The notes under the pieces: generated by a model
The model's input: the letters and a program-made list of their open reading frames with translations, nothing else
What the model was told of the DNA's origin: nothing
Databases searched by the model: none
Made by a program: the position numbers and the translations under genes
Assembly (NCBI GenBank): GCA_963575745.1
Contig: CAUYUJ010000239.1
Location: forward strand, 1 to 64,000
Length of the DNA: 64,000 nucleotides
Direction: 5' to 3'
From: Prorocentrum cordatum
Taxonomy: Eukaryota
Shown: positions 784 through 37,900 of the stretch, in pieces
Layout of the letters: the number at the start of each line of letters is the position of its first letter
Numbering within the stretch: position 1 is the stretch's first letter

Positions 784-1522
784 TCAGGGGCGCGCTGGCA
801 GGCGGCTAGCGGGTGGGCCGGCGGAGTCTGCGAGCAGCACTTCGGCCAGGTCTGGGTCGTCCTCCCCGGCGGCTCCCCCCAAGGCTAGGTAGCCGTCGCC
901 CGTCAGGGTGGCCATGAGCGAGTCCTGGGCCGCGACGCTCAGGAACCCCCTCCAGCGGTTGGTGTACGCGAGCTCCGCGGAGCGGCGGAGGAGGGCCGGC
1001 GCGGCCCGCGCCTTCTGCTTGGCAAGCAGGCGTACCAGCTGGAGGGAATCGCGGCCCCACCTGCCTCCGACCTCGCAGGAGAGGACCAAGAGGCGGCCTG
1101 AATGGCCGGTCGTGAGTTCGTGGTACCTGCGTCGTTTGCGCCTTTCGGCCCCAAGTAGCGCGGCGCCGTCGGTGTCGAAGGTGCGCGGCCGGTGCCAGCC
1201 GTCCCTGCGGAGGGGGGACACCATGGTGCTGTCGCAGCACAGCGGGACGCCGTTCGGCGAGATGCCGTAGACGACTAGGTCTAATTGTCTGCGGTCCAGC
1301 GGGTTGTGGACAACGGCGTTAGTGTCCCGCAGCAGCTGTTGGGGGACAAGTCTCCCTCCTGCTTCTCTGGCGACCCTCGCCCAAGCTCGTTCGAGCGGTT
1401 TCGCGCGTCTGGCGAGAAGCCCCGTGCGTGGGCACGCGGCTAGGTGGTCTCCCAGCGTGTCCAGCCGGGCCCGGCAGCCTGGGTGGCCGGCTGCCCCGCA
1501 GGTGTGCGGGAGGAGCGGCAGC
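784..1522 (-). mobile_element. 3' end of a 5'-truncated CRE-like (RLE-type) non-LTR retrotransposon: Zn knuckle plus restriction-like endonuclease
   Basis: Minus strand reads LPLLPHTCGAAGHPGCRARLDTLGDHLAACPRTGLLARRA (C..C..H..C knuckle), then RQLDLVVYG...LCCDSTMVSPL...AERRKRRRY.EL...LSCEVGGRWG, the D..D..K..Y..E-G layout of RLE domains; stop at 784-786. Confidence 0.75.
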
Positions 1523-1580
1523 TACAACTCTGGGGTCAGCCCTGGGATCAGAGCGTGTACGAACGGCGAGCAGTGGCAGC
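1519..1580 (+). pseudogene. Isolated PPR repeat fragment (SYNSGVSPGIRACTNGEQWQ)
   Basis: Nearly identical to units of the PPR array at 3.3-5.8 kb, including the 12-bp SPGI insertion. Confidence 0.85.
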
Positions 1581-2745
1581 ACCACCACGACTGCGACAAG
1601 CAGCACCACCACCACGACTGCGACCCGCAGCACCACCACGACCACGACCACGACCAGCAGCACCACGTCTGCGACCAGCAGCACCACCGCCACTACGACC
1701 AGCACCACCACGACTGCGACCAGCAGCAGCACCACAGAGACCAGCAGCACCACCACGACCAGCAGCACCACCAGCACCAACACGACGGCGACCAGCAGCC
1801 CCACGACTGGGACCAACAGCGCCACGACTGCGACCAGCAGCACCACGACTGCGACCAGCAGCAGCACCACCACGACAACGACCAGCAGTACCACCACCAC
1901 GACCGCGACCCGCAGCACCACCACGACCACGACCAGCAGCACCACGACTGCGACCAGCAGCGCCACGACCGCAACCAGGAGCAGCAGCACCGAGACAGCG
2001 ACCAGCAGCACCACCACGACGAGCACCACCAGCACAACCAGCAATACCACGACCGCGGCCAGCAGCACCACCACGACTACAACCAGCACCACCACGACCG
2101 CGACCAGCAGCCGCACCACAACGACCAGCAGCAACACCACCTCGACCGCGACCAGCAGCACCACCACGACTACTACCAGCAGCACTACGACTGCCACCAG
2201 CAACACCACGACCACGACCAGCAGCAGCACGACCACGACTGCCACCAGCAGCTCCACCACCATGGCCAACACCAGCACCAGCACCACCACTACTACGACT
2301 AGCACCACCACGACAAGCAGCACCACCACAACCGCGACCAGCAGCGCCAACACGACTGCGACCAGCAGCCCCACGACTGCGACCTGCAGCGCCACGACTG
2401 CGACCAGCCGCAGAACCACTACCAGCACCACCACCACGACTGCAACCCGCAGCACCACCACGACTGCGACCAGCAGCACCAAAACTGCGACCAGCAACAC
2501 CACGACTGCGACCAGCAGCAGCACCACCACGACTGCGACCAGCAGCAGCAGCAGCACCACCACCAAGACCAGCACCACCAGCACAACCAGCACCACCACG
2601 ACTGCGACCACCAACGCCACCACGACTACGACTCGCAGCACCACGACCGCGACCAGCAGCAGCACTATCATGACCGCAACCAGCAGCAGCACCACCAACA
2701 CGACCACGACCAGCAGCAGCACCACCACGACTGCGACCAGCACCA
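1580..2745. repeat. Mosaic trinucleotide array (ACC/GAC/CAG)
   Basis: Recurrent CACCACGACTGCGACCAGCAG motif; gives poly-T/S and poly-H/Q/D ORFs. Confidence 0.9.
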
Positions 2746-3324
2746 ATTCCGACCGGCAACACGACCCCCAGCAACGACGGGCACCACCTGCAACGACCAG
2801 CAGCAACGACGCGCACCTGCACGACGGCGCGCACCGACGACGCCCACCGCCCCTTCCCCTCGCCTTTCCTTCGGCCTCTGTCCCCTCGTCTCGGTCCCGT
2901 CTCGTTCGCCCCCTTCCCCCGCGTCGTTCGCCCTTCGCCGTTCGGGCCCGGCTCGTGCCCCTCGCCCCCTCGTCCTCCGTCCCCCGCCCGCCCCACCCCC
3001 GCCTGGAGTCCAGACCCAGCCGCGCCTGCGAGACAAGGGAGCAGTGGCAGCAGGTTGTGGCGCTGCTGATTCCCAAACTGGGGCCCAACGTCATCAGTTG
3101 CATCGATGGGGCCAGCGCACGTGCGAAAAATGGGCAGCGGCAGTGGCAGCGAGCCAGGAAGGAGAGCGAGGCGGCAGAGGAGGAAATAGAAGAGGAGGAG
3201 AAGGCAGCGGACGAGCAGGACCAGGTCGAGGAGGAGGAGGAGGCGAAGATAACCGCGCTCGACGTCAGCAGGCAGTGGCAGCGAGCCAGGGAGTCAGGAC
3301 GTGGAGGAGGAGGAAGACGGGAGG

Positions 3325-6056
3325 TGATGGCGGAGCCAAGCGTCATCAGCTACAGCTCTGGGATCAGCGCACGCGCGAGAGGCGAGCAGTGGCAGCGGGC
3401 TCTCTCACTGCCCAGCGAGATGTGGGAGGCGAAGGTGGAGCCAAGTGACATCAGCTATAGCTTTGGGATCAGCACCTGCGCGAAAGACGAGCAGTGGCAG
3501 CGGGCCCTACTACTGCTCAGCGGGATGTGGGAAGTGAGGTTGGAGCCGAATGACATCAGATACAGCTCTGGGATCAGCGCGTAAGCGAACGGCGAGCAGT
3601 GGCAGCAGGCTCTCCCACTGCTCAGCGAGATGTGGGACGCGAAGGTGGAGCCAAGCGTCATCAGCTACAGCTCTGGGATCAGCGCGTGCGCGAAAGGCGA
3701 GCAGTGGCAGCGGGCTCTATCGCTGCTCTGCGAGACGTGGGAAGTGAGGTTGGAGCCAGATGCCATCAATTACAACTCTGGGATCAGCCCTGGGATCAGC
3801 GCGTGTACGAACGGCGAGCAGTGGCAGCGGGCTCAATCGCTGCTCTGCGAGATTTGGGAGGCGAAAGTGGAGCCAAGCGTCATCAGCTACAGCTCTGGGA
3901 TCAGCGCGTGCACGACAGGCGAGCAGTGGCAGCGGGCTCTATCGCTGCTCTGCGAGATTTGGGAAGTGAGGTTAGAGCCAGATGCCATCAGCTACAACTC
4001 TGGGATCAGCGCGTGCGCGAACGGCGAGCAGTGGCAGCAGGCTCTCCCACTGCTCAGCGAGATGTGGGAGGCGAAGGTGGAGCCAAGTGTCATCAGCTAC
4101 AGTTCTGGGATCAGCGCATGCGCGAGAGGCGAGCAGTGGCAGCGGGCTCTCTCACTGCCCAGCGAGATGGGGGAGGCGAAGGTGGAGCCAGATGCCAACA
4201 GCTATAGCTCTGGGATCAGCGCGTGCGCGAAAGAAGAGCAGCGGCAGCGGGCTCTATCACTGCTCAGCGGGATGCGGGAAGTGAGATCGGAGCCGAATGT
4301 CATCAGCTACAGCTCTGGGATCAGCGCGTGCGCGAAAGGCGAGCAGTGGCAGCGGGCTCTATCGCTGTTCTGCGAGATGTGGGAAGTGAGGTCGGAGCCA
4401 GATGCCATCAGCTACAACTCTGGGATCAGCCCTGGGATCAGAGCGTGTACGAACGGCGAGCAGTGGCAGCAGGCTCTCCCGCTGCTCAGCGAGATGCGGG
4501 AGGCGAAGGTGGAGCCAAGCGTCATCAGCTACAGCTCTGGGATCAGCGCATGCACGAAAGGCGAGCAGTGGCAGCGGGCTCTATCGCTGCTCTGCGAGAT
4601 GTGGGAAGTGAGGTCGGAGCCAGATGCCATCAGCTACAACTCTGGGATCAGCGCGTGCGCGAACGGCGAGCAGTGGCAGCAGGCTCTCCCACTGCTCAGC
4701 GAGATGCGGGAGCCGAAGGTGGAGCCAAGTGTCATCAGCTACAGCTCTGGGATCAGCGCACGCGCGAGAGGCGAGCAGTGGCAGCGGGCTCTCTCACTGC
4801 CCAGCGAGATGTGGGTGGCGAAGGTGGAGCCAGATGCCATCAGCTATAGCTCTGGGATCAGCGCGTGCGCGAAAGAAGAGCAGTGGCAGCGGGCTCTATC
4901 ACTGCTCAGCGGGATGTGGGAAGTGAGATCGGAGCCGAATGTCATCAGCTACAGCTCTGGGATCAGCGCGTGCACGAAAGGCGAGCAGTGGCAGCGGGCT
5001 CTATCGCTGCTCTGCGAGATGTGGGAAGTGAGATCGGAGCCAGATGCCATCAGCTACAACTCTGGGATCAGCCCTGGGATCAGAGCGTGTACGAACGGCG
5101 AGCAGTGGCAGCAGGCTCTCCCACTGCTCAGCGAGATGCGGGAGGCGAAGGTGGAGCCAAGCGTCATCAGCTACAGCTCTGGGATCAGAGCGTGTACGAA
5201 CGGCAAGCAGTGGCAGCAGGCTCTCCCACTGCTCAGCGAGATGTGGGAGGCGAAGGTGGAGCCAGATGCCATCAGCTATAGCCCTGGGATCAGCGCGTGC
5301 GCGAACGACGAGCAGTGGCAGCGGGCTCTATCACTGCTCAGCGGGATGTGGGAAGTGAGATCGGAGCCGAATGTCATCAGCTACAGCTCTGGGATCAGCG
5401 CGTGCACGAAAGGCGAGCAGTGGCAGCGGGCTCTATCGCTGTTCTGCGAGATGTGGGAAGTGAGGTCGGAGCCAGATGCCATCAGCTACAACTCTGGGAT
5501 CAGCCCTGGGATCAGAGCGTGTACGAACGGCGAGCAGTGGCAGCAGGCTCTCCCACTGCTCAGCGAGATGCGGGAGGCGAAGGTGGAGCCAAGTGTCATC
5601 AGCTACAGCTCCGGGATCAGCGCGTGCACGAACGGCGAGCAGTGGCAGCGGGCTCTCTCGCTGCCCAGCGAGATGTGGGAGGCGAAGGTGGCGCCAAGTG
5701 TCATCAGCTACAATGCTGGGATCAGCGCGGGCGAGAAGAGGGGGCAGTGGCAACAGGCATTCGTGCTGCTCAGCGCGATGCTGGACGCGAAGCTGGGACC
5801 CGACGTCGTGGGTTACGGCAGGCGGGCAGGGCCGGCGGGCGCTGCGGCCGCGGGCCGCCGGGCTGGGGCAGCTCTGGCGGCCTTCGCGGGCGGCCTTGCC
5901 CGGGCACGGAGCGGAGCCGGCCGGGCCAGGGCTTCGAGCGCTCCCGCGGCCTCGAGGCCGAGGCACACAGGGCGGCTCGGCCGGGCGGGCGGCGGGCGGC
6001 GGCGGCTGGCGGCGCGAAGACCGCGCGGTGGCCGGCGGGCCCGCCGGGCCGCCTAA
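3325..6056 (+). CDS. Intronless tandem pentatricopeptide-repeat (PPR) array, about 23-24 units; in-frame stop at 3582-3584, open 3630-6056; function uncertain
   Basis: 35-aa/105-bp units VISYSSGISACAKGEQWQRALSLLSEMWEAKVEP(S/D), then an Ala/Gly/Arg-rich tail. Confidence 0.85.
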
Positions 6057-6167
6057 GGCGACCGCGGGCGTCGGCAGCCCAGCCAGGGGGCCAGCCGGAG
6101 GGAGCCAGGTGCAGCGGCCCCTTTCGCTGCGGACTCGGCCAGGGACTGGGACTGGGACTGGGAGAGG

Positions 6168-7750
<1,583 letters not shown>

Positions 7751-20000: not shown

Positions 20001-21480
20001 GCCCCACGAGGGCCCGAAGAGAGGCCAAGAGGAAGAACACGAACCGAAAATCATATCTTTCCGCCCCGAGAGGCCCCCAGAAGCCCCTAGAAGCCCCCAA
20101 GCGGCCCAAAAGAGCCCCCAATAAGCCTCACGAGGCCCGCAAGAGGCCCAAAAGAGGCCCCAGAACGGCCCCCAAGACGCTTCTCTAACAGGCTCAGCCA
20201 CGCCCCTAAACAGTTCCCAAGACGCCGACGAGTCCCCAAATAGCGCCCAAGAAGCACACGACACGTCAACCGTAGACTCCCCGCCTCTTCTGGTGGTCGG
20301 CGGAAAGGCGGAAGCCTCTTGAATATCTGTATTGAGCAATTGTAAAGGAGGCAGAGAGGGAGAGGAGAAGAAAGGGAGAGGGGGAGAAGCGAGGGAAGAG
20401 TAGAATGGAGCGGGGCGAAATAGGGATGGGCGAAAAAGAGAACACACAAGCGGAGAGGAAAGGGGAAGAGGGGGAAGCGGGGACATGGGGAGGACAGTGG
20501 GGACGAGGAGGGGATGGGGGAGATGTAAAGCGGGTTTGGAGAGAGAGCGGTAAAGAGAAAGAGAGTGTGTGTGCGTACGGGCATGTGCGGCGAGTGAGGC
20601 GGAAAGAAGGGTAAGGAGGGAGAGAGAAAGACGAGAACTGTTGGAGGAAAGGGGGGGCGGGACGAGAAGGAGAAAGAAAGAGAGAGAGAGAGAAGAAAAA
20701 AAAATGGACGGAGGCACAGAATCCTGTCTCGTCCTTATCTTCCACGCCCCCTTCCACCTCCAGCTGTTCATCATCACCCTCTCCCCACTACTCCGACTGC
20801 TCCTCTGCATCCTGCGTCTGTTACGTTTCCTCCACCTCCACCTCCTCCTCCTCCTCCTCCTTCTCCTCCTCCTCCTCTTCCTCCTCCTCCTCCTCCTCAT
20901 TATCCTCCTCATTTTCCTCCTCCTCCTCCTCCTCCTCCTCCTCCTCCTCCTCCTCCTGTTCCTTTTCCTTTTCCTTTTCCTTCTCCCCCTCATCATTGAC
21001 CTCGTTTTCCGCACCGTTCTCCGACTGACATGCTTGCACTCGTCGTTTCGTCGCTTCCCTCCGTTTTGCCAAAGAAATCCTGCGGATTGCGCATCGCCAA
21101 CCACGACTTGCCAGGGTCCACGGCGTCATCCTGAAGGGCAGCCTCAAGCACGGTGGCGAAGAGATTCGCGCCCTTTTCTGGGGGGGGGCGAGCACAAGAA
21201 GGAAAGGAAAAGAAGGACGAGGAAAAGGAGGACGAGGACGAGGAGGAGGGGAAGGAGAAGGAGGAGGAGGAGAAAACAGAGGAGGTCGAATCCCCGGGCC
21301 CCTTGGGGCCAACAAGCTGTGTGGCATCCCTCTTCCCTGCACAAGTTCTGGCGTGAACGTTTCCAGCGTTCGAACTGCAGGCTGTCTGGCTCAAGCAGCT
21401 TTGCCTCGTGGCAGAACACACGAGGACGCCAGGCCGAAACCCGCCCCACTGCGCACAGGACACCCCAGAATACAACATAT

Positions 21481-21668: not shown

Positions 21669-22756
21669 TGCGCGCGCCCCCCTACCCCCGACGCGAAGAG
21701 AGGGGTTGAGGGGCCGCTCTTTCTTGAGCAACAAAGAGCTGCAGGATGCCGGGTCTCCGCCCGAGCAGTCGACTTAAAATTTGGCATAAACCTAGTTACA
21801 AGCACGCCCACCAACCAAATATTCCTATCTTAATAATCTCACACCAGGAAACTGACACCGAAGGGTCCCACCCACCCCCAATAGGATTTGGCGGCCCACT
21901 GGAGACTCCTGGACCGCCACGGGGGCCTCCCGGACCTCGACTTCGGCCCCCCAGACCCCCTTGATGGCTTCGAGCAATTGCCGAGACGGCCCAAAAACGC
22001 TCCAAGACGGCTCAAGATAACCTCAAGACGGCCCCATGGGCAGCCAACGAGCCCACAAGGGCTTCAAGCGCCCCCCGAACAGCCCCCCGAGAGGCTGAGA
22101 TCGATCAAGAACCTATAGGAAATTGATAATTTCCGCCTTCTAACTTGATCGCCTCTTATCAGCCTCCGCGGCCTCAATGCGGCATCCAAGAAGCCCCCAA
22201 AGAGGCCCAAAAGGTCCCCAACAGGCCCCAAGAAGCCCCCAAAGGCCCCCAAGAACACCTGCAAGGATTCCAGAAGGCTCTGCAAATACCCCCCAAAGCC
22301 CCCAAGAGGCCCCCAAAAGGCTCCCAAGAGGCCCCAAGAGGTCCCCTGGAACGCCCCGAAGCCCCGTAAAGGCCCCCAAAGCCCCCCTACATATTGCAAG
22401 AGGCCCCAGTGCCACTCCGAACCACCCCCGAACTCCCACAAAAGCCTACCAGCTCTCCTTCCTGCTCTTCCTAACCGCCTCTCCCGAACGCTACCTCGCA
22501 CCGCGAATCCCAGACGGACTTCCACCTCCAAAATACCACAAGCGCCCCAACATGTTCATCTAGCCTTCATACTCAAATGGTGGTCCGTATCCTTCCGAGA
22601 CCGTCTTCAGAGCCTACCGGCTCTCCTCTTTCCCTTCTTACCACCCCTGCCCATTCCCTCCCACCTCCCCACGCCGCTCCCCCGCGCTCTCCATGGTCCC
22701 TCCTGCCATGCCGGCCGCTGCTGCAGGCTCAAGCCTTATCGCGTGACGGCCGTCAA

Positions 22757-25700
22757 ATGCCACCGAAGCGCTCAACCTTGACTTGCACGCAATGCCATCG
22801 ATGCTTGGACACGTCTGCCTTTTCGGCCACGCAGTTGCACTCTTCATCTCGGACAGCCCGATGCAAGGAGTGCTGCTCCACCGCTAATGCCCCTGTACTT
22901 CTGCGACCCTGCGCCAGCTGCGGGACAGAGCTCGCGCAGGCTGAGTACGCGCCGGACCAGTGGCGACGAAGTGCCCGCAAATGTTTGACCTGCACAAGAG
23001 CCGCGCTTCAGCGTAGCGGGGCACTTAGACAGCATACCGACATCGTCTGCTCCAGGTGCGGCGTCTGCTGGCCCACCGACATGTTTCCACGGCGGGCCCC
23101 GAAGCGGGTTGGCCCAGTTTGCTTCAACTGTGCCGCGCCCGCCCCCGACGGCGGCCGCCCACCGTCGACCCTCGCCTCCATTTCTTTGGGGGACATGTCC
23201 ACCCAATGCGACCACTGCGGCGCACTTTTGTTCAACTCGGAGTCAAAAACGTTCTGTTGTAATGCCGGGAAGTACTTCGTCAACTTTGACACCTATTTCC
23301 AATGCCCCGACAAACCCCTCTGCGACATCTTCGCCTCCCACTGGCCGCTCACAGACGACCGCGGAGACAAGATGCACGACACCACCACCAACGAGCTTCG
23401 GTGCACTGGCTTCACGGCGCAGCCCAGGCGGTACAACAGCCTCTTCGCCCTCGCACAACACGAAATCCAGCGCAGCACTGGAGACAAAGAGCTTCGATTC
23501 GGAGACGCCCGCCGGCCAGCAAACATCCGTATCCATGGGACGATTTACCGACGCGCATTCTCTATGGCTGACCAGGTCCCTCTGCGATACCTGGTGCACG
23601 ATCCGTAAGACCGCTTCGTCACCGCCGCGGCGCACGGCCTCAACAAGCAGACCACCAAACAACTCGAACAGCTCATAGTGCCGAGAAATGCCCACATGCG
23701 TATGATTCAGCGTTTGGCCCGCCAGTCCAAACAAGCAGCAGACGCGAATATCATCTTGGAGTGGCACGAAGGAGTCAACGAAGTGGCTGGAATACTGGAC
23801 GTCGACCCCACCCCTGACCGCAACAAAAGGTCCATCGTCTTCACATACAAGCTCCACGACACGCCGTCCTACTTGCACCCGCTGAGCCCGTTTCACGAAC
23901 CCTTGAGTTACCCCCTGTGGTACCCGTTAGGCGGCCGCGGCTGGAGCACAGACGTCATCAGCGCCACCGGCCACAAGGTAACACAAATGTGGTGGCATCG
24001 CCAACAATTGCTCCGACTCCCCCACATGCACCTTTGCGGACGGCTGCTCAACGAGTGGCTCATCAACATGTTCACGCGCATGGAAGACGAGAGGTTCTCC
24101 CACATCCGTCATCAACAACGACAGCGTAGCGCCACTCGCCAGGAGCTCTGCGAGGTGCTCGCCAACGACCCCGCCAAGGCCGGAACGGTTGGCAAACAGT
24201 ACGTTCTGCCATCGAGCGTCCCAGGATCACCTCGCCATCTTCGCCGACTGCGCGCTGACGCCCTGGAGCTGGCGCGACGCAAAGGCCCGCCGTCGTTCTT
24301 CATCACGTTGACTTGCAACCCCTACTGGCCAGAGATTGTGGGTCAACTGCACCGCGGACAAACCGCCGCCGACAGACCCGACATCGTCGTCCGCGTCTTT
24401 CACGACCGGCTGCAGAAGATCGTCGCTTTCTTGAAGGATTCTTTCTGCGGGGCTCGCCGTTACCTCATCAAAGTGATCGAGTACCAGCTCCGCGGCCTTC
24501 CACATGCGCACATCGCTCTGGCTGTCCTCAACCCGCCCGCCACTCCGGACGAGGTCGACCTTCTCATCTCCTGCGAGCTACCCCGCGAAGACGGACGACT
24601 CCGCGAACTCGTCCTTCGCCACATGGTCCACAGCTGCAACCATTCTTGCCACCCTCAAGACCCCGCTCAAGACTGCGTGAAAGGATGCCCCTGGCCGTTT
24701 CCGGACGACAGGGTCTTCGACGCGCGCGGCTACCCCCACCACCGGCGGCGACCATGCGGCGGCCACTGCCCGAATTGCCGATCTGGCCAGGCCATGTACG
24801 GGAAACACGACGTCTGCCTCAATCGGCTCATCGTCGAATACAGCCCCGTGGTGCTTCAACTCTGGGAGGGGCACGCCAACGTCAAGTACGCAGCGACGGT
24901 GGAACTCTTCGAATACCTATACAAATATTTGTTCAAAGGCCCTTCCAAGACGAACTACGACGTCACGCTAGATGCGAAGGTTGCCGACGAGATTTCCGAG
25001 TGGCTCAAAAGCAGATATCTGTGCGCAACGGAGGCAGCATGGCGCATGTTCGGATACAACACCTACGACAGATGGCCGCACGTCGTCTGCTTGCCCGTGC
25101 ACCTGCCCGGACAACAATGGATTGTTTTCGCGGAAGGAGAGGAGGCCAATGCGCTTGAAGCCCACGTGTCACCACTTCAACGGTACTTCTACCGACCCGC
25201 GGGTCCACCGTTCGACGCATTGGCCTACCACGAGTACTTTGAAACCTACATGACGTCCCCATCGTGCCCATCGCAGGCCGCTGCCGTGTTGGACCGCGCC
25301 CCTCCGCCAAAACAGTTCTTCGTGTACCCGAGGCTGCGTGGCGAGCCCCCGTTGTGCCGCCTCGAGATGAAGTTCCCGAAGCAAGGCGACGTCTTCTACC
25401 TCCGACACATCCTGCTGAACTTCCCCAAGGCGTCCTTTGCCGATTGCAGGACGCACAACGGCAAGGTGTATCCTACTTACGAGGAGACGCTACGGGCCAC
25501 GGGCCAATTCGTCCGCGACGACGAAGCCCACGCCGTGCTCGACGAGCTCATTGCGCTCCGGTACACTGCAGCCCAACCTCGCTTCGCGTTCCTGGTTCTA
25601 CTCGAACAAGATGCCGCCCCCGTGTCTCTCTACCGCAAGTACGAACGACCGCGTATGAAGGACTTCCTGGACCGAGGTCTCGGCGTCCGCGCCGCCCAGA

Positions 25701-27320
25701 AAAATCCCCTGGCCCTGCTGCGAGCCACCTGGCTGCAGAACGGCAACAGCGACGAAAATTGGAAGCTGGGCGAGATCACTGACGGGGCTCCCGCCGACGC
25801 TACCGCAGGGCCCCCCTCAGATACTACAACGCCTACCCCCACCCCGACGACCGCTCTGCTCGCCCGCATTCGCCAATGCCCCGGGCAACGCACAGCTTAC
25901 GACCACATTCTCACTTGCTGCCACCGGCGTCGCGAAGCCTTCGTGTTTGTGGAAGGCCGCGCGGGCACAGGGAAGACTACGTTGGCTACCTGCCTCACGC
26001 AAGCTCTCGAAGCCGATGGGCACCAGGTACTCAACGTGGCTACCACGGGGCAGGCCGCCCTCTTGCAGCCTCACGGCACCACGGCACATTCCGCCTTCGC
26101 CATTCCAGCGCACGACGACGCCGAATTCACGTGCTCTTTATCAATGACGTCGGCCCAAGCCATTACAATATGCAAGGCCACTTTGATCCAGTGGGATGAA
26201 TTCCCTTCTGCAAGAAAAGCAGCGTAGGACGCCGTTATTGCATTGCTGCGCGCACTCGCCGATCGTTACCCGGACACATACGTCCCGAAGACCTTCGTCG
26301 GATACGGGGACTGCAAGCAAATCCCACCAGTCGTCCCCAAAGGGACTCGGCAATCCATCGTCTCCAGCAGCGTCCGCTCCTCAGCTTCATGGCCCCAGTT
26401 CGCCATTTTCACGTTGGACCGAGTGCACCGCCAGGCAGACGATCGGCATTTCGCAGCATGGCTGGACACCATCGGCCCCGGTGACGCGCCGACGATAACC
26501 AACCACAGGCAGCCCTGGCAACTTCAAGCTGCACGACATCGCCACCGCCCCATCCGAAGACGACGCCCTCAAGTACTGCTTCCCCGCGCCGAATGACCCG
26601 CACCAGTGCGCCGAATCCAAAGTTCTCGCCGTCCTCAATTCTCTCGTGGACGCCTACAACGAACGCATGCTGAACCTGCTGGCGCGCACCTACCAGTGCC
26701 CTTCGCATCGTGCCCTCAGCGCGGACACGCTCGACATCGATGCCGCGGGAGCAGTTGAACAACACATCACCGCCGAATTCCTCAACCTCCAGACCTCCCC
26801 CGGCGCTCCCCCCCACTGTCTGCACCTCGTGGAAGGGGCCCTCTACGAACTGATGCGGAACTTCAACCCAAAAGACCGCCTCATGAACAGGGTCCCCGTG
26901 ATACTTCGCAAAGTCCACACTCACCACGTGCTGATAGAGACCCTCGACGGTCGGGCATTCCCCCTCCCACGGATCACGTTTCGATGGCAGATCGTCAACG
27001 GCACTTCCACGATGGCTCGTCGACAGTACCCTTTACGACCAGCTTATGCATCCACCTACAACTCTGCACAAGGACGTACCCTATCCAGCATGGTGCTGGA
27101 CGTGCGCCACAACCCGTTCAGCCACGGCCACCTGTATGCCGCCCTCACCCGGGCGCGGCACCGCTCTGATATTCGTGCGCTCGCTTCGCCCGACCACGTG
27201 GACACAGACGGCTGGGCCATCGTGAAGAACATTGTTTGGCCTGAGCTGTTGTTGGCCGTACCCACGAAGAGTTCCAGGCGACCTCGCCCAGCCATGAAGA
27301 GGCCTGCGTCCTCCCGCTGA
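22757..27320 (+). pseudogene. Helitron RepHel transposase (HUH Y2 Rep plus Pif1 SF1B helicase), disrupted by two in-frame stops (23606-23608, 26225-26227) and a frameshift near 26500
   Basis: Zn finger LGDMSTQCDHCGALLF..FCCNAGK; Rep motifs FFITLTCNPYWPEI, VIEYQLRGLPHAHI, YLYKYLFKG; helicase motifs EGRAGTGKTT, ATTGQAA, TAHSAF, IQWDEF, GDCKQIPPV, RRQYPLRPAYASTYNSAQGRTL, FSHGHLYAALTR. Likely start MPPKRS at 22757. Confidence 0.95.
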
Positions 27321-27939
27321 CCAGAGGACCAGAGGCCCTCGTGTTTCGACTCGTCTCACCCCGCGCGCAGCCCACAAACGCAGATTTCTCGTCCTCGTCC
27401 TCGTCATCGTCTTCTCCCTCCCCATCTCTCCTGTCATTCTCCCTTCCGCCGTCGCCCCCGCAACCTTCCCCCCCCCTCCGTCTTCGACGCGTCGTTTCTC
27501 CAGGGCCCCCGCGAACCTCCCCAAACTCCTAGGAGACCCCAACCGGCCCCCAACGCACGCCACCAATCCCCGAGCACCCCGGCACCCCGATGGGTCCCCA
27601 CGAAACACCATGAGGCTCCCAGCGGCCCGCAAATGCCCCCAAGCCCGCGAAAGCCCCAAGAGACAATACTAGAAAGCCCCCGTCACCCCCCCAACCCCCG
27701 CACCCACATAGAATACGCTGGTCACGATTCCTTCTCCTCCTCCTCCTCCCCCCCCTCCACTTCCCCCCCCTTCCCGCGGTGCTTGCCTGCAACGGTGACC
27801 CGCCACGCGGCTTCCAGCGAACGGGATCGGCCAAGGCTGGATCAAACAGTGCGTGTGTGGTATTTAACGTGCCCGTTCGGCATCGTGGAACCCATCGCGT
27901 GCTTTGGGGCCTCTCCGTCATCTGCTCCTCGCCTTCGGC

Positions 27940-29290
27940 GGCGGGGACACACATACATTCACCAGCCAGATTTCCAGGGACAGCTTCCGGGGAGATTATA
28001 CCAGTTGGCTTACGCCATTCCGCTGACACCCAGAAGGAGTGGAACCTTGCGACGGCCGTGGAATTCCCTGATAGCCTTCAACCTCACCCTTGCCACCGTG
28101 CCTGGGCTATCGGTCGGGAACTCTTCACTTCATATGAGGGTCTCTTGAGGTGCCCCGGAGGGTGCTCCTGAACAGCTCCTGGGGCCATCTGGCAAGTGTC
28201 TTGCGTCCTCTTCGAGGTTCTGGGGCCTTCTCGGGGCTCTTCGGCCGTTTTGGAGGCCTTTTGAATCCCTCCTTGCTCACCAGTCTGTGTGCGTATCCCT
28301 CGCAACGTCCACGCACCCAGATCCATGCACCACACCTGCATGCATATATGAGCACATCAGCCGCCATTTGCGGCGACAGCTTCCGGGGAGATTATACTAT
28401 TTGGCTTCCGTCGTTCCGCCGACCTTCAGAAGGATTTCAGGACTTGCGACGATGATGGAAATCATATGGTGGCACTCGGCCAAACCCGCACGAGCGTCGC
28501 TGGCCTCATGGTCAAGACCTTTCTGATGAACATGAGGGTCTGTTGAGATACCTCCGAGGGGTCTCTGGGACATACCGTCGCTACGTCCACCACGCAGTTC
28601 GATGCTACAAACATGCATGCACACATGTATTCATCAGCCAGACTTCCAGGGACAGCTTCCAGGGAGATTATACCCACTGGCTTACGCCATTCCGCTGACA
28701 CCCCGAAGAGTGAGCCCTTGCTACGCCGCAGAACTTACCCGGTGGCCTTCGGCGAAACCCTTGCCACCGTGCCTGGGCTGTCGGTCAGGAACCTCTTGAA
28801 TTAATATCAGGGTCTCTTGGGATACCTCGGCGGCCCTCCTGGAGAGCTCTCGGGGCCATCTGGCAAGTGTCTTGCGCCCTCTTGGAGGCTCCGGGGCCTT
28901 CAGGGCTCGCTGGGGCCGTCTCGGAAGCCTCTTCGGACCCTTCCCTGCTCACCAGTCTGTCTGCATATCTCTCTCAACGTCCACGCACACAGATGCCTGC
29001 ACCACACGTGCATGCACACATACACACGTCAATCGGCATTCGCGGGGACAGCTTCCGGGAAGATTATACGATTTGGCTTACGCCCCGCCGACCTCCAGAA
29101 GGATTAAGACCTTGCGACGATGGTTGAAATTATCTGGTGGCGCTCGGCCACCCCCGCGCCACCGTGCCTAGGCTGTTGGTCAGGACCTTCTCAATGAACA
29201 TGGCGGTCTGTTGGGGTGCCTCAGAAGGGCTCTTGGAGGCATCTCGGAGCTTCGTTGCGGCCTCTGAGAGCCTCCCGTGCCTCTGGGGAG
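27940..29290 (+). repeat. Diverged 2 x 672-bp tandem duplication, each copy built of related 396- and 276-bp subunits
   Basis: GACAGCTTCC(G/A)GG(G/A)AGATTATA anchors at 27978, 28374, 28650 and 29046, with homologous flanks. Confidence 0.8.
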
Positions 29291-29806
29291 CTTCTCGAGT
29301 CTGTCTTCGAGACCTCTTCTAACCTCTACACCGCGCATCGGGGGCCCCTGCGGGGCCATTCGGATCATCATCGGGAGAGACGCTCGAAACGACAGGTCGC
29401 CCCGACCTCGACGCCCGAAACGACACCCGCAACGTCCCTACGGACGCCTTAATACGAACAACGCGCAACAACGAAACATACACGTTCAAAGATTATGTTT
29501 TCACACGCGCGTGGATCTCTGCCTGCGCCGACGAGTGCAACCTGTTTGTTCGAAGCCCCCATCGCTGACACGTGCGTCGGTCCCTGCCAGCGCCGACGAG
29601 TGCAACCCCTTTGTTCGAAGGCCCATTCTCTGGACAGCTTCCGGGCTAATTACTTGCCTTCCCCTGCCTTACGACCGTCGGCCCATCTGGAGTCGGTATT
29701 TGACAGCCCCGAGCCCAACATCAGCCACCAAAGGACGAACATGTAACAATGAACATCGTCGCGGTGTGTCCACCAGACGCCTGTGCCCATTCCCCCCTCA
29801 TGATTC

Positions 29807-29828
29807 TCCGTAGCCATTTTTGCTCAGG
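29807..29828 (+). promoter_or_regulatory. Relic dinoflagellate spliced leader (DinoSL)
   Basis: TCCGTAGCCATTTTTGCTCAGG versus DCCGTAGCCATTTTGGCTCAAG: 20 of 22 match; 43 nt upstream of ATG 29872. Confidence 0.9.
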
Positions 29829-29871
29829 CTCCGGCGCGGATTGCTAGTCTGTTCGTCCCCGCTCGTGCTCA

Positions 29872-31685
29872 ATGCGCGCCTCACGGTGCCTCCAACTTCT
29901 GGCATTCTGCATTCTTTGTTTCACATCGTGCTGGGCGGCACGTTCCTCTTCGGACTCCGACTCGGAGTCAGACGCGTCCGTGTTTGGAGACGGGGTGCCT
30001 GTGGCTTCTTCCGCATGCACTGTTGCCCGAACCTTCTCAGCAACCCCGTCGGACGCTAAGTTTTATCAGCGCTCCTGTGGCGAAGTCCCCGTCTCACAAC
30101 CTCTGTTCAGTTGTTTAGACCATATGCGATGGGTAAAGCTGGTGCAACTTTGGTGCGACATCCACGGGTTTCACGAATTTCCTTTCTGCTGCGTGCTACA
30201 AACCTGCAGCCGGCCCATGAATGCTCTTACCGCCCCATGCGGGCCACAGTCGGGTCCACGCCCTCGGGTGCGAGGCCGAGGCCACACTTTCGAGTCGCCA
30301 TCTGAGTTCGTGCGCCGAAGCACCAAAGGCCTTCTGGACATCAAGAATTACGGGTTCAACAATTATGCATCAGGCTTCGACTATACCAACATGTTCCTGG
30401 ACATCGTCACTGGCGCGGCGTCGTCTCACGCGCAAGTTCTGCTCAACATGTTCGTTTGTAAGGTATGGCTCAACCACGGGTCTTTTTTCGCCATGTTCTT
30501 GATAGCATACGCTTATGTGCAGACGCAACCGCGCCAGGTGAAACTTCCACGTTTGGTGGAGAGGTTCCGACAGCACCTTTCGTCTTACCTGTCGGCCCAG
30601 AGCCTTCGAGATGCGTCATTCGCCGCCGTGCTCACATCTGAGAACATGGATATACACATGATGCTCCAAGCCGCGGCTATTCGTTGGCTTCTCCACAGCC
30701 GCAAACAAGCAAGAACCGGGTACAATATAGGATCTTTTGCGAATGAGACTCCGCTGGCACATCCTCGTGTCCGGTACATCAAGCTGCGAACTCGACGCAG
30801 GAATGGTTGGAAGCATATCCAACGGCCGGTCCTCGACGGCGTTCACATCCCTCGCAAATTTGTCCTGGTTCTGCCTCGGTTGGAACGACTGCGACAATTG
30901 CTGCTTAGCAATACCCCATTTGAAATCGCATACGGAAGGCTGCCGCCGACGCGTCCCACACCCAGGACCCCCCACGCTGATGTTTCCGTGGTCCGCCCGC
31001 TCGCTATGGCGAGCATCCCAGAAGGCCCCGTGACCCCTTCCCCGACGCCCCTAAGAAAGCTACGCAATGCCAAGCACGGCTCCCTTTTTCATTAGACATG
31101 TTCTCCAAGCCGCCATCGCGGGGGCCTGCGCGAGCGGGCCGCGGATCCACGCTGCCATGCCAGGTAGGTCCGTTTGTGGCCATGCAGATTCTCAATGCGT
31201 TCCACCGGAATGCTTTGTCGTGCAAGCTCTCAGGCACGTCTATCATCACGCGGCTCTGCGAAAGGAGGCAGATATATCCTGGCCCTGGGACACGCGTCTT
31301 GCTAGGATTGCGCGGGTTCCCCAGCGGGCTCAAGGGCAAGAAGAAGAAGGCGCCATCCTCCCGCATGCAAAACACATTGGACCGGCGCGACGCATTAATG
31401 CGCGACGCCGCGTTCGCAGAAATGGCATCCCAGTGGGGGCCGACAGGCAAGCGGGCGGCCGAATTGCTCGGCATGGCTCACCTGCGTAGCTGCGGCTTTG
31501 CCGAAGAAAGCACGGTCTGCGAGATCGGGTCCAATTTATCTCGGTCGCGAAAGCGCGCCCGCGCCTCGCACTGGCCAGACGATATCCGCGATGGCTTCGT
31601 GCTGTCATTGCGCGCACTGTGTTTCGCAGAGCGTCGGGCTCTCTGGACGCGCTTGGCCCGGCGCAAGGTCGCCGAGGTCGTCTGA
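29872..31685 (+). pseudogene. Frameshift-split gene (29872-31095 plus 31098-31685) resembling the 5-hmdU DNA kinase helical domain / aGPT-Pplase1 family (HhH-GPD-related)
   Basis: N-part YGFNNYASGFDYTNMFL...VLLNMFVCKVWLN; C-part VGPFVAMQILN...YPGPGTRVLLGL...EESTVCEIG. The order matches my recollection of the family pattern Y-F-N..R..D / F..FN / GPF.AYQ / GPGA..GL / E..LCE. Recognised by eye only. Confidence 0.6.
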
Positions 31686-32910
31686 GCGCAGCCCCGTGCA
31701 CAGTTTTTTGCAGACCCGACAGACAGAATGACCCCGCAAACAAAAAAGCACGCGCCTGCCGTGCACGAGAGAAAGGAAGACGGAAAAGAGGGCGAGGAGG
31801 AGGAGGAGGACGACGAGGAGGAGGAGAAGGGCAGGCAGGAGCAAGAGCAAAGGAGAAGCAGCATTTGTAGGACAGCTTCCGGCGCAATCCACACCTTCGT
31901 GGACCATCGGACCAGACATGGCAACATGGCGCCGCTGATATGGAAATCGCTTCTCGGGAGCTTCCAGGCGAATCCGGAAAAGGAAAGGAAATGATACGAA
32001 GAAGAGGAGGAGGAGGACGACGAGGAGGAGGGGGGAGGAGGAGGGAACAGGCAGGAGCAAGAGCAAACGGGGGGGGGCAGCAGAAAGAGAACGCAGCATT
32101 TTTAGGACAGCTTCCGGCGCAATCAACACCCTCGTGGAACATCGGAACGAACATGGCGCCGATGACATGGACATCGGTTTCGGGGGCTTCCAGGGGAATC
32201 CTCCCCCCCCGATGCCAAACAAAAACAACCCTCTCCATTGAGGCGCGCCTGGCTGTTTACACGGCCATCTCAAATACGCTTGGCACGTGTGCCGCGCGAT
32301 TTTTTGGGCGCCCCATCTCGCGGGCAAAGGGGTACATAATCGTCAGTTGTTTTGTCCCGATTGGCATTGTCTGGGCGACTCCCAGGGCAGTAACCTACCT
32401 CCAGGACAGCCAGAGAAATTCCACGCCCAACGGCAAGGCAACTCTCGGGACAGCTTCCGGGGGATTTCACTAGCCAATCCCCCCCCCCCTCCATGGCAGC
32501 CGAACGACAACTTGGACCCGCCTTGGGACAGCGATTTCTGAGACAGCTTCCGGGCAGATTCGGCGGGCGCGCGTCTCCGGCTCGGGGCCCAAATTTATTT
32601 TCCTACCTGCGCGATTGCAGGCAGCCCGCCATTCGATTGTTTTCCACCGATTCTGCCTGCGCCTGATTGTGCACTCCCAATGATGCAACCCCAGCGCGGC
32701 AACGCACAAAATCGTTGTGGCTCCCCGTGCGCACACACTGCCACAGACATTATCCGGACAGCTTCCGTGCCAATAACAGTCGCCCCGCCGCCCGCGGACA
32801 ACCCCGAGCTCCCCGCAGCATCTGGCCCGCAGCTCCTCAAGCAGCTTTGCGCTCACCAACGTCCGACCGCCAACTCGGCAGCCCCCCCCCGCCGCGCGTC
32901 CCAGCTCGCC

Positions 32911-33749
32911 ATGGCCCGAAGGGCTCGAACGCGACTTACGAGTACGCCCCGGAGCAGACCGCAGCCACCACTGCGAAGGCGGCAGACGCGGGGAAGAACC
33001 GCGACTACGTGTCGCTCTACACGGAACACATCCACATCGAGCTCCTTGACATCAACAAGAAGAAAGCGAACGGGGTCCGCGTCACCATCGCCGACGGCGC
33101 GAGCTTGCGCTTCCGCGAGGAGCGCAAGACCCACGGCCTCACCACGCTGTGGAAGGACGCCGTCGCCGTCCACGACTTGGACGAGGCCCCCGCTGGCGTC
33201 CAGATCGCGCAGTGTGGCTTCACCAGGGCGCTCAGCAAGGGCAACCCGAATCCGAGCTGGGCCAACGTCCACGTGGCATTCGGCCAGTCCGCCCGCGCCA
33301 CAGCCAACGCGCAGAAGCACGTGCTGCAGACCACCGCAGACCTACTCCAGCACAGCTACATCGAAGCCGATTTCGTCGTGCCGCCGACGGGGAAACACAA
33401 CGGTTTCACAGTCTCCAGCGTCCGCGACCAGAACCGTGTCCAGCTCACTCGGTCCTTCAAGATGCTCGACGGCACCGACCGCACGGTCACGGAGTTGCAC
33501 AACTTCTGCGTCGTCGTCGCCAAGAACATCCCCGAGAAGATCCTCGCGCCGCTGCGCAGCCTGCAGAAGAAGTACCCGCAGTTCATCACGTGGACCACGT
33601 GTGACCCGAACACGGCCATGGTGGACACCGTCCCTTCTGCCCTGACCGCCAAGGCGCCGGCCGCCCCCACGTCCGGCAAGAAGCGCCCGGCGGCGGCCGC
33701 CGTCGGCGGTGCCGTCACGAAGAAGCCCGCCAAGAGGGCGAAGAACTGA
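32911..33749 (+). CDS. Intronless hypothetical protein (~280 aa) with basic C-terminal tail; start probably MAPK with a 1-nt indel
   Basis: Very strong G/C third-position bias and a globular-looking sequence; GCCATGGCCCGAAG would read M-A-P-K with one more C; tail KKRPAAAAVGGAVTKKPAKRAKN. Confidence 0.8.
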
Positions 33750-34403: not shown

Positions 34404-34503
34404 NNNNNNNNNNNNNNNNNNNNNNNNNNNNNNNNNNNNNNNNNNNNNNNNNNNNNNNNNNNNNNNNNNNNNNNNNNNNNNNNNNNNNNNNNNNNNNNNN
34501 NNN
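34404..34503. other. Assembly gap (100 N)
   Basis: Run of N; adjacency across it is not proven. Confidence 1.
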
Positions 34504-34537
34504 GTGCGTGTGTGCTGTGTGCGTGTGTGGGTGTGTG

Positions 34538-34570
<33 letters not shown>

Positions 34571-34586
34571 GCGCGGGCGCGTGCGC

Positions 34587-34646
<60 letters not shown>

Positions 34647-34689
34647 GCGCGCGTGCGCGTGTGCGTGTGCGTGTGCGTGTGCGTGTGCG

Positions 34690-34734
<45 letters not shown>

Positions 34735-34750
34735 GCGCGGGCGCGTGCGC

Positions 34751-34810
<60 letters not shown>

Positions 34811-34900
34811 GCGCGCGTGCGCGTGTGCGTGTGCGTGTGCGTGTGCGTGTGCGTGTGCGTGTGCGTGTGCGTGTGTGTGTGTGCGTGTGCGTGTGTGTGT
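34504..34900. repeat. (GCGT)n/(GT)n microsatellite
   Basis: Direct reading. Confidence 0.95.
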
Positions 34901-34964
34901 TTGTCTGTAATTCTTAATATCTATAAATATGAATGTAAATATAACAAATAAGAAAAACATCTAG

Positions 34965-37900
34965 CACCTCTCCCTGGGCGCTGGACGCGTCTCGGCCTCC
35001 AGCCGAAAAGCTCGAGCAGGGCACCATATTTGCGGTCTCTTCCGCGGGCCTCCCGCGGACCTTCCGCGGGGCTAACCGCCGGGGCAGGCGCGGGAACTCC
35101 CGCTGTCAAAGTCGGCTCAGCTTCGGCTGTCGCAGTGTTTCCTGCGACCATCCGTCTAGCTCCCGTCGTGGATCCCTTGAGAGCTCTCGGGACGATCTCG
35201 GCACTCGCTCTTGAGCGCCTCGACAACTTCTGCGCGGCCTCAGGGGTGCTCAAGTCCTGGAGGTTGATCCTGATCAGGGGTCTGCGCGCCGTGGCATATA
35301 CTCTCAACTGGTCGATATTATTGGCCCGTCTGTCAGACAGCACGCTGCCCTTCTCGAGCAACCTCGTGATCAAGTCGCTCTTGAGACCAGACACGCGCAG
35401 GCCGCTGGCTCTCCAGATCCGATTCAAGTCGACCGAGAAACGCGTTGAAAAAGCTTGCGCCTCGCTCCTCCGCCCAGTCGCGTTGAACGTGGCTCTGAGC
35501 CAAGTCCTGTCTTGACCTCCTTGTCGGGCGTACCCTGCTGGAAGTCGGCGCGCCCAGGTGCGGGGCGAACCGTTTCCTGGATCAGGTCCGTCGCGAGGTA
35601 GCTCTTGCCGCAGCATGCGCACACGAATCCTAGAACGAACACCGCAGCGATCACCACGAAGACTCTCGTCTTCAGGGTGATCCGGAACTCCTCTCTTCCC
35701 ACGTGGCGAAGCACAGGAGCGGGGCAAACCGCGGCCTGAGCTGGCTCCTCGGACACCGCCCCCTTCTCGCCTGACGGAGAAATCACGACTTCTGGTCTAG
35801 AACGGCGCAGCGCCTGAACATCTTCGACCACTCGCTGTACTCGGCGAAGATGCGCGCAATCATCTCGTCGGTATCCTCCTTCAGGAGTTCGAGCGCCTTG
35901 AGTCGCAACCGCTCCCGTACACGTAGGAACCTCAGCTCTAGGTGCCTGACCTTGCCCACGCCCTCTCGCGAACGCATGCCCCGCCCAGCGGCGCTGTAAC
36001 TATAGATCCTCTGGTTGCTGGGCCGTTGGGTCTCGATCAGGCACGTCTTGCACTGGAGCCCTCAGGCAGTCGCACTGCCTGTGGCATACATCTCGGAGCC
36101 CCCTGAGCTCAGGGCAATCATACCCTGCGTCACCGAGTAGCAGTCCCACGCACGATCCCCGTTGCGCACAGCTACTCCACTCGTGGATCGCCCCTGCAAC
36201 TCGCTCGCAGGTGCCCAGTCTGCATCTCCATCCACACAGATGCCTTCAGGAGTGCCCGGCAAAGGGTAGCATGAGATTAGCACGGGTTTGCCTTCGCAGT
36301 ACCTCCCAAGCCGCTGAAACCTCGCATGCATCAAGGACATCGGGGTTAGAGACGGGCTGCAGGCTGCATCGTGGCCCTGCTGGCGCACATCAAGTCGAGC
36401 CTGTCCAAAGAAAGGTAAAGCGCCGCGCCCGCCGCACCTGCAATTTCCCAAGCTGGGTCCCTGGAGAGAAAGTCCAAACTGTCTCATCGGCCTTGTCCTG
36501 TCGCTTTCGTTCCTGGAGTGGGAACTGCCTTGCACCCTCGCTGCTGCGCCCGTTGGATCATGCAATCCACGTGCTTCGGACCTGCTGTCCAGGAGAAGCC
36601 TAGATCCCCAGAGCCCGGTAGCTGGTCTGTGTAACTGGCAATCCTCTTGAGGTACTTCGTCTGCCCAGGTCATCCTGCACCCAGTCTGGCGATCGCTGTG
36701 ACCTCGAACTGCTGCTTCAGCATCTCGCCCAGCTCGTCTAGCTGCTCGTCATGGCCTTCGGCCAGGCAGTCGTCTCCGCGGCTGATCGCCGTGGAGTCCT
36801 CGTCGGAGGCAAAGACGTTGAGGTCGCTGGCGGGTAGAAGACTTTAGACGTCGCCATCAACGCCATCAAGCAACCCCAGTGAGCGTCGTCCACGGTGGCC
36901 CTTACCATCTCTCCCCACATCTGCGAGGCCTTCCTGGCGCCGTTCATTGCCCTGCGGAGCCACCAGCACCGTCCAGGAGGGCACAACTGGCGCCCAGGAT
37001 GCACGTAGATCACCTCGTCGAGGTCGGCCATGAAGAAAGCCGGCCTGACGCCCCAGACCTGGATCATCCGGTGGTGCTCGCCTGTGCAAGCATGGCTCGA
37101 CGCGGCACGGTTTCGCGTCGCTTCCACTATCATGAGCGGCGGCGTGCCTTGATGGTTGTCCTCGCGCACCTCGTGTTTGTTGATCTCTGTCGCCACGAAC
37201 CTCCACCTGACCCTCCCCTGTCCATGTGGGCGATGGTGAAGCCTCCGATATGATTGCCATCGGTCGCTGTCGGCGTCGCAACCTCCACGTAGACGCCGTA
37301 GTCCTTCATGGCTTGCAGCTCGTCATCGCGACCTTCCTGGTACATATCCTCGTCCAAGGGCTCTCCAACGCAGTAACCGTAATGCATCGCACTTGGGCTC
37401 CATTGGTCGTGTTCGTGCAACTCGGCGCTGACATCAACCAGCTGCTCAATATGCTCGTCGTCTGGATCGCCGAAGTAACTCCTTACCGTGCCGATGTTGC
37501 TCATCAGGCAGCGCCTGCATGCAAACTCACACCGGTGGCATTCTCTCATCTGGCATCTTGACACACGCTTCTCGCCCCATCCAGGAGATCCTGGAGCTTC
37601 GCTTCGGGCATGGATCCCACGTTGGGTCGAAGCTCGCGTCGTAGCCTTCCTCACAGACTGCTAGCTCGCAGACAGAGAGCATGCCGATGGATGCTACTCT
37701 CGGCTTCTTGACCTCCAGCTCTGGCCTCTCCTCTCCAATGGCAGCTCGCTGGAAGTCGCCCCTTATATGTTCGGGCTCCGTCTGCATGGCAATCTCTGCC
37801 TCTTCTGAGACAGAAGGCATGGCCAAGGCAGCCACAGCAGGGGCGGCAGGCCCCGCGACCTCACTGCTGCTCGATGCCGCTGCTGGTCCAGCTGCTAGCC

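Follow-up and report, generated by a model that had tools for sequence, protein, structure and literature searches.

An interrupted, spliced-leader-tagged gene copy in Prorocentrum cordatum and its small protein family with a predicted DNA-glycosylase-like fold

Introduction

Among the described systems closest to the gene examined here are two families of phage thymidine-hypermodification enzymes, HMUDK_hel (PF18723, 'aGPT-Pplase clade 1') and ADDT (PF18724, also named PUGT). The gene was found as a damaged copy between positions 29807 and 31685 of a 64-kb stretch of Prorocentrum cordatum DNA (contig CAUYUJ010000239.1, positions 1 to 64,000), the whole of which is called the window, and all features of the copy given below lie on the + strand. 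In dinoflagellate DNA much of the thymine is replaced by 5-hydroxymethyluracil (5-hmU), and we know of no dinoflagellate enzyme that reads, removes or elaborates this base. A family with a glycosylase fold and the Cys/Glu signature of the phage enzymes would be a direct candidate for such a step. The account favoured here, with slightly better than even confidence, is that the locus is an interrupted processed copy of a gene whose product is a lineage-restricted protein of the HhH-GPD superfamily, distantly related to HMUDK_hel and ADDT.

In the phage pathway, ADDT was described to act after a dedicated kinase has phosphorylated 5-hmU, and mutation of the Cys or the Glu was reported to abolish the activity of M6 gp51 and ViI gp247 (PMC8989533). 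In PUGT, Glu243 and Thr244 were reported to hold a metal contacting O4 of the everted thymine, and Cys247 was proposed to attack C6 (PMC11472151). A TET/JBP-type enzyme making dinoflagellate 5-hmU was identified only in 2024, and 5-hmU was linked to transposon silencing (PMC11572971). A literature search yielded no paper linking the HMUDK_hel and ADDT phage families to dinoflagellates. An earlier note, made from the letters of the window, had described the copy as Helitron cargo resembling a phage thymine-hypermodification enzyme.

The protein family and its conserved motifs

The family to which the copy belongs is real, conserved and tiny. A HMMER profile search of 1.84 billion representative proteins returned 23 at E<=1e-3; of these, 15 reached E<=1e-10 and 7 reached E<=1e-30. 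Fragments from short metagenome contigs made up most of the 23. A word-based search gave two relatives, P0001 (525 residues), which is one intact member of the family, and P0002 (381 residues). Among the 23 proteins a taxon label was present only on P0005, a EukProt transcriptome entry of Pyramimonas sp. CCMP1952, the remaining members having no name or being termed 'hypothetical protein'. P0005 and the open reading frame (ORF) of the window had 109 identical residues out of 116, which means that somewhere a nearly identical copy is transcribed. The Pyramimonas label fits oddly with the dinoflagellate leader relic described below, the feature of the window from which a host with 5-hmU DNA was assumed, and the P0005 transcriptome is possibly mislabelled or cross-contaminated. 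A public assembly was found to contain, on a contig of 320 kb, a divergent member of 347 residues, P0006.

No relatives of the family were found in the IMG/VR viral contigs or in the metagenome locus searches, and 50,697 phage records searched by tblastn with P0001 gave no match at E<=10. The ESM Atlas search gave no usable match, and no longer, fused forms of the family were found, which is weak evidence. The window itself contained no second copy of the gene.

The family alignment comprised 25 rows, many of them fragments. In order, it was found to contain a hydrophobic N-terminus and an acidic Ser/Asp run, followed by the presence of FPFCC...C, (R/Y)FN.(Y/F)...D.TN, K.WLNNG, RTGYN(I/V)GS, QP.LDG..IP.KF, GPFV.MQ, YPGPG.RK, EE(S/F)..CE and HW. 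The C-E pair was conserved in 8 of the 8 rows covering its position, with Glu at the position four before the Cys in 7 of 8, whereas the G-x-G hairpin was present in 9 of 9 rows and GPF in 6 of 7. The position at the start of the helix that follows the hairpin (residues 426-441 of the P0001 model) was found by eye to be acidic in 6 of 7 rows.

The split coding sequence

The locus was found to contain two frames open from stop to stop, at 29848-31095 (415 residues) and 30981-31685 (234 residues). The 5′ part (29986-30924) aligned with residues 40-351 of P0001 at 40% identity (tblastn, E 7e-70), and the 3′ part (31164-31679) aligned with residues 360-524 at 43% identity (E 6e-37). Because an intact homologue of 525 residues aligns over both parts, the ORF is more than a chance one.

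The first part of the coding sequence (29872..30924) was found to contain a signal-peptide-like hydrophobic N-terminus and an acidic Ser/Asp stretch, followed by the presence of the FPFCC...C cysteine cluster (30178-30192), the FNNY...D.TN motif YGFNNYASGFDYTNMFL (30349-30399), the motif LLNMFVCKVWLN (30439-30474), a WLN(N/H)G motif and RTGYNIGSF (30712-30738). The second part, which includes the stop codon (31164..31685), contained the GPF motif VGPFVAMQIL (31164-31193), followed by the PGPG helix-hairpin-helix turn YPGPGTRVLL (31275-31304), the EES..CE motif EESTVCEIG (31503-31529) and SHW (31566-31574). The five motifs quoted in the earlier note were all found in their places.

Between the two parts, homology to the intact homologue was found to end at 30924 and to restart at 31164, and the copy-specific stretch 30925..31163 comprised 239 nucleotides (nt) in the window as against 8 residues (24 nt) in the homologues. 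The break thus amounts to about 215 extra nucleotides, which is not a multiple of three, and therefore a single insertion or deletion or a one-base slip does not account for it. Frame 1 continued to the stop at 31093-31095 and frame 3 was open from 30981, so the two frames of the frameshift-split ORF proposed earlier were borne out, whereas the simple indel placed at about 30980-31093 was not, since 239 nt replace 8 residues of the homologues. A script was found to list 23 donor and acceptor pairs of the GT/GC/GA..AG type that restore the frame across 30925-31163, and the 8-residue spacing of the homologues was reproduced by none of these 23. No repeat of the stretch was found elsewhere in the window. 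The 239 nt are either an insertion together with a change of frame, or an unspliced or retained intron, and the copy probably makes no full-length protein unless they are spliced out.

The spliced-leader relic

A full-length relic of the dinoflagellate spliced leader (DinoSL), 22 nt with 2 mismatches, was found at 29807..29828 (the pattern match covering 29808-29828), followed by the first ATG at 29872, 43 nt past the relic. The pattern had this one match in the 64 kb, and 0 of 100 shuffled sequences gave any, so the relic that had been noted at the head of the ORF was confirmed as the sole match in the window. A second, degraded relic seen by eye just upstream was dropped, no match being present there within 3 mismatches.

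Leader relics are the accepted tag of mRNA-derived dinoflagellate retrogenes (PMC6050394, PMC5585692), and the gene is taken to have arrived as a processed transcript because a full leader relic is followed by a short 5′ leader. The copy has in common with the DinoSL-tagged retrogenes the 22-nt relic directly before a short 5′ leader and ATG, and differs from them in that its coding sequence is interrupted by 239 nt. Neither a clear poly(A) tail nor a target-site duplication was found for it; a short A-rich run about 55 nt past the stop (31738..31748, by inspection) is possibly a degraded poly(A) remnant, which is weak evidence. The locus is best explained as a gene copy that was made from a processed mRNA and has since been interrupted. 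The interest lies in the family, to which the damaged copy adds little beyond pointing to it.

The predicted fold

The AlphaFold2 model of P0001 on the 25-row alignment was found to have a mean predicted local distance difference test score (pLDDT) of 81.3 and a predicted template-modelling score (pTM) of 0.83, with residues 1-47 and 413-420 disordered. The first run, on a 4-row alignment, gave a pLDDT of 39.5 and was unusable. When the model was compared by VIA-align with 48,161 representative chains, the best 25 all belonged to the superfamily with the HhH-GPD glycosylase fold, among them NTHL1 (Z 7.5), Tm1821 Ogg (Z 7.1) and EndoIII (Z 7.0). The same best 25 were found to contain AGOG, MagIII, MIG, CacOgg, MutY/MUTYH, OGG1, Mag1, AlkA, ROS1 and MBD4, together with QNG1 and the phage 5-phosphomethyldeoxyuridine (5-PmdU) glycinyltransferase ADDT (8z2m).

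In Foldseek, the comparison with PDB gave noise only, at a template-modelling (TM) score of 0.2 or less. In BFVD, an HMUDK_hel protein of Microbacterium phage Lucky3 (A0A2P1CFV2) was found with prob 0.54, TMt 0.49, root mean square deviation 8.5 and E 1.2, and it was the sole protein with TM >0.3 among the 50 BFVD matches listed, the others having TM <=0.22 and prob <=0.16. The fold call thus depends on VIA-align, as Foldseek would have missed it.

In the model, the YPGPG turn was found between the helices 384-392 and 400-406, as a helix-hairpin-helix, and the C-E pair was located inside the helix 464-478. A long basic beta-hairpin was formed by residues 296-321. The model supports a two-lobed helical fold of the HhH-GPD, DNA-glycosylase-like type for the predicted protein, and likewise supports a fold shared with the solved ADDT member.

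From the modelled fold and the conserved residues, the intact protein would use the hairpin to bind nucleic acid and would flip a base, most likely a pyrimidine, into a pocket that the conserved Cys and Glu residues line. By analogy, these two residues may be equivalent to Cys247 and Glu243 of PUGT. On this view the family would be remotely related, on the eukaryotic side, to the phage HMUDK_hel/ADDT clade; it would act on thymine or 5-hmU and would not be a classical repair glycosylase.

Evidence on kinship and substrate

Several results were found to weigh against the favoured account and are gathered here. On the structural side, the other four of the five AlphaFold2 models had a pLDDT of 66-69, and all Foldseek E-values, for PDB and for BFVD, were above 0.1. 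These two results, together with the low score of the 4-row run and an alignment of only 25 rows with many fragments, speak for a false fold call caused by the shallow alignment, the family then being a helical protein of another kind; this reading is considered very unlikely.

In the VIA-align comparison, ranks 1-16 were found to be filled by QNG1 and the repair glycosylases, which outscored ADDT. These higher Z values are consistent with the protein being a divergent HhH-GPD base-excision glycosylase of the ordinary kind, for a damaged or modified base, possibly 5-hmU, and without special phage kinship. The acidic residue after the hairpin, conserved in 6 of 7 rows, points in the same direction, as it lies near what we take to be the position of the catalytic Asp of the superfamily, and no sequence test favoured the phage families. 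An ordinary glycosylase is, however, no better matched by Pfam, where no HhH-GPD match was found at E<=10 either; the invariant C-E pair is, to our knowledge, not a feature of repair glycosylases, whereas in ADDT it forms the catalytic signature; and the HMUDK_hel protein was the sole standout among the 50 BFVD matches listed. The protein was considered unlikely to be such a glycosylase.

By sequence, none of the Pfam families HMUDK_hel (PF18723), ADDT (PF18724) and HhH-GPD (PF00730) was found to match at E<=10 the window halves, P0001, P0002 or the 25 rows, and the family had no Pfam match of any kind, the queuine-salvage family included. PHROGs gave noise only, as did a PDB sequence search with the family profile (best E 0.2), and no solved structure of the family was found in PDB by sequence. 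For reference, the profiles confirmed gp55 of phage M6 as HMUDK_hel (8e-56) and gp51 as ADDT (1.4e-46), and viral contigs yielded 80 loci of HMUDK_hel and 45 of ADDT, which were reduced to non-redundant alignments of 47 and 26 sequences. With all filters off, hmmsearch gave about zero in both directions, the best score being 1.8 bits with the hidden Markov model of the 47 viral HMUDK_hel sequences.

In hhalign, the family and HMUDK_hel were aligned with Prob 0.7%, P 0.077 and a score of 22.1 over 37 columns on GPF..GPG, as against a mean of 16.4 +/- 2.5 for 40 block shuffles, 2 of which equalled or exceeded the observed score, and the comparison with ADDT gave P 0.1. The profile comparison proposed in the earlier note, against HMUDK_hel, ADDT and HhH-GPD, thus gave no Pfam match at E<=10 and a marginal hhalign similarity to the two phage families. 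As a control, HMUDK_hel and ADDT were aligned with each other, with Prob 33% and P 4.5e-4 over 28 columns at the GPF/GPW motif, and since the phage families themselves link only weakly, hhalign is near its limit in this superfamily. Against HMUDK_hel and against ADDT alike, the best hhalign alignment of the family was found in the segment from GPF to the hairpin, and the realigned family alignments start at the GPF/GPW motif, which also joins the two phage families.

A collinearity test used the eight 9-residue blocks with the highest conservation in HMUDK_hel, each of which was put where it scored best in the family profile. The GPF block alone (1 of 8) was found at the site expected from the alignment by eye, the C-E block having its own expected site as second-best, and the chain score was 35.2 in the true order as against 42.4 +/- 4.7 when permuted, 95% of the 3000 permutations being equal to or above the true one. 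The greedy alignment was collinear through the FN..D.T, TG.Y, GPF, GPG and C-E sites. Significance was reached by no sequence method, and kinship to HMUDK_hel and ADDT is not established by sequence alone. What remained of the resemblance to a phage enzyme was the HhH-GPD fold (by VIA-align, 8z2m included) and the order of the motifs, whereas membership in the phage families did not stand in Pfam, hmmsearch or the block test. Specific kinship to HMUDK_hel and ADDT is plausible but unproven.

The N-terminus was a further point. The window copy, P0001, P0008 and P0016 were all found to start with 15 hydrophobic residues (Kyte-Doolittle mean 2.1-2.4) ahead of an acidic Ser/Asp run, and this start looks like a signal peptide, as had been noted earlier for the copy, or a signal anchor. 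A plain role on nuclear DNA fits poorly with it, because a signal-like N-terminus would place the domain outside the nucleus. A hydrolase of the QNG1 type, which would release a base for salvage from free nucleotides, from nucleosides or from nucleic acid taken up by ingestion, in a secretory, vacuolar or extracellular compartment, was weighed in this connection. No Pfam match was found for it, queuine salvage included; its VIA-align rows, within a Z of <1, tie with NTHL1; and the helix-hairpin-helix turn together with the basic beta-hairpin 296-321 points to a polymer as substrate. A QNG1-like hydrolase is therefore regarded as distinctly unlikely.

Partner enzymes were looked for in 119 ORFs of the window (20 large ones across its length and 99 at 12-48 kb). 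No kinase was found among them, in agreement with the earlier observation that no P-loop kinase is visible nearby, and no TET/JBP or other modification partner was found in the ORFs scanned between 9 and 48 kb. The scanned ORFs matched only PPR genes (1.3-7.7 kb), the RepHel, a Copia-type fragment and, weakly, ZIP.

With these points taken into account, it is doubtful that the family represents a eukaryotic enzyme with thymine or 5-hmU in DNA as its substrate. It is equally tentative, and rather unlikely, that it descends as a eukaryotic branch from the phage thymidine-hypermodification enzymes and would evert thymine or 5-hmU and use Cys and Glu at C6 and O4, in organisms with DinoSL trans-splicing and DNA rich in 5-hmU.

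The Helitron neighbour and the wider window

On the same strand, a RepHel gene was present at 22475-27317 (+), with Helitron_like_N (1.3e-40) and PIF1 (1.5e-23) in the ORF 23609-26224. It was found to be degenerate, as an in-frame stop at 23606-23608 cuts off the upstream open frame 22475-23605 (377 residues), and the helicase changes frame after 26224 and continues in 26499-27317. The distance from its end to the leader relic was 2.5 kb. A tandem repeat with a unit of about 670 bp in two to three copies (80% identity over 626 nt) was present between them, at 27948-29250. No Helitron 3′-end hairpin was found in 27200-33500, and no second locus of the family came from the metagenome or viral searches with which linkage to RepHel could be compared.

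On the reading of the earlier note, the gene would be cargo of this Helitron and would benefit the transposon, for instance through the masking or marking of 5-hmU. The RepHel ORF lies on the same strand 2.5 kb upstream of the gene, and 5-hmU was reported to mark and silence dinoflagellate transposons (PMC11572971). The full leader relic and the short 5′ leader, however, show arrival as a copy of a mature mRNA, the RepHel itself is broken, about 1.3 kb of the 670-bp tandem repeats lies in between, and neither a terminal hairpin in 27200-33500 nor a second copy in the window was found. The cargo reading is unsupported and considered highly improbable. Later capture of a retrogene by a Helitron is possible in principle, and nothing here shows that it took place; the position near RepHel is best explained by both lying in the same repeat-rich region.

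Triplet-rich tracts of the CCT/GAG type were found at 20730-21290 and 31760-32070 on opposite strands, forming imperfect inverted repeats about 10.8 kb apart that flank RepHel and the ORF, and they are of low complexity and so probably not meaningful termini. A short GGACAGCTTCCGG-like motif occurred 10 times between 27970 and 34120. A dense microsatellite-like array with 8- and 12-nt spacing was present at 34476-34915 (33 overlapping copies of a 164-nt reference), followed by the presence of a Copia-type reverse transcriptase fragment at 36741-37322 on the - strand (RVT_2 8.1e-5, weak and below the gathering score), which suggests that decayed mobile elements have accumulated in this region. 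A pentatricopeptide repeat (PPR) array in several adjoining open frames was found at 1323-7747 (+), with PPR_2 at 1.9e-96 in 3585-6053, and a weak ZIP match was observed among the window ORFs.

Comparison with described systems

The family is an undescribed one within a known superfamily. If the protein does act on 5-hmU, this base would be further processed, read or exchanged by an undescribed enzyme family, and a further thymine derivative might exist; if it is a secreted salvage hydrolase instead, it would still be an undescribed branch of a well-known superfamily.

Compared with the repair enzymes, the family contained no PF00730 match at E<=10 by which it could be joined to EndoIII/NTHL1, MutY, OGG/AGOG, AlkA or MBD4, and the HhH-GPD glycosylases are not known to have its invariant Cys-Glu pair, its added N-terminal region and its beta-hairpin. 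The queuine-salvage protein QNG1/DUF2419 (PDB 7ugk, 7u07), whose substrate is a free nucleotide, was found to have 6-7% identity to the family and no Pfam match in it.

Among the phage enzymes, ADDT/PUGT (PaMx11 gp46, PDB 8z2m; M6 gp51) contains E-T-x-x-C in M6 gp51 and has no hidden Markov model match in the family, and in contrast to the ADDT system no dedicated 5-hmU kinase was seen near the family gene. In comparison with HMUDK_hel, the family protein is eukaryotic and exceeds it in length by about 200 residues. Its extra parts are the signal-like N-terminus, the acidic stretch, the N-terminal cluster of Cys residues and the inserted basic beta-hairpin 296-321, the last two of which have no counterpart in the phage proteins. 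M6 gp55 of the HMUDK_hel family was found to contain GPF, followed by the presence of a G-P-G hairpin and E-x-x-x-C-E, in the same order as in the family, and the distance from the hairpin to the Cys was about 70 residues in both.

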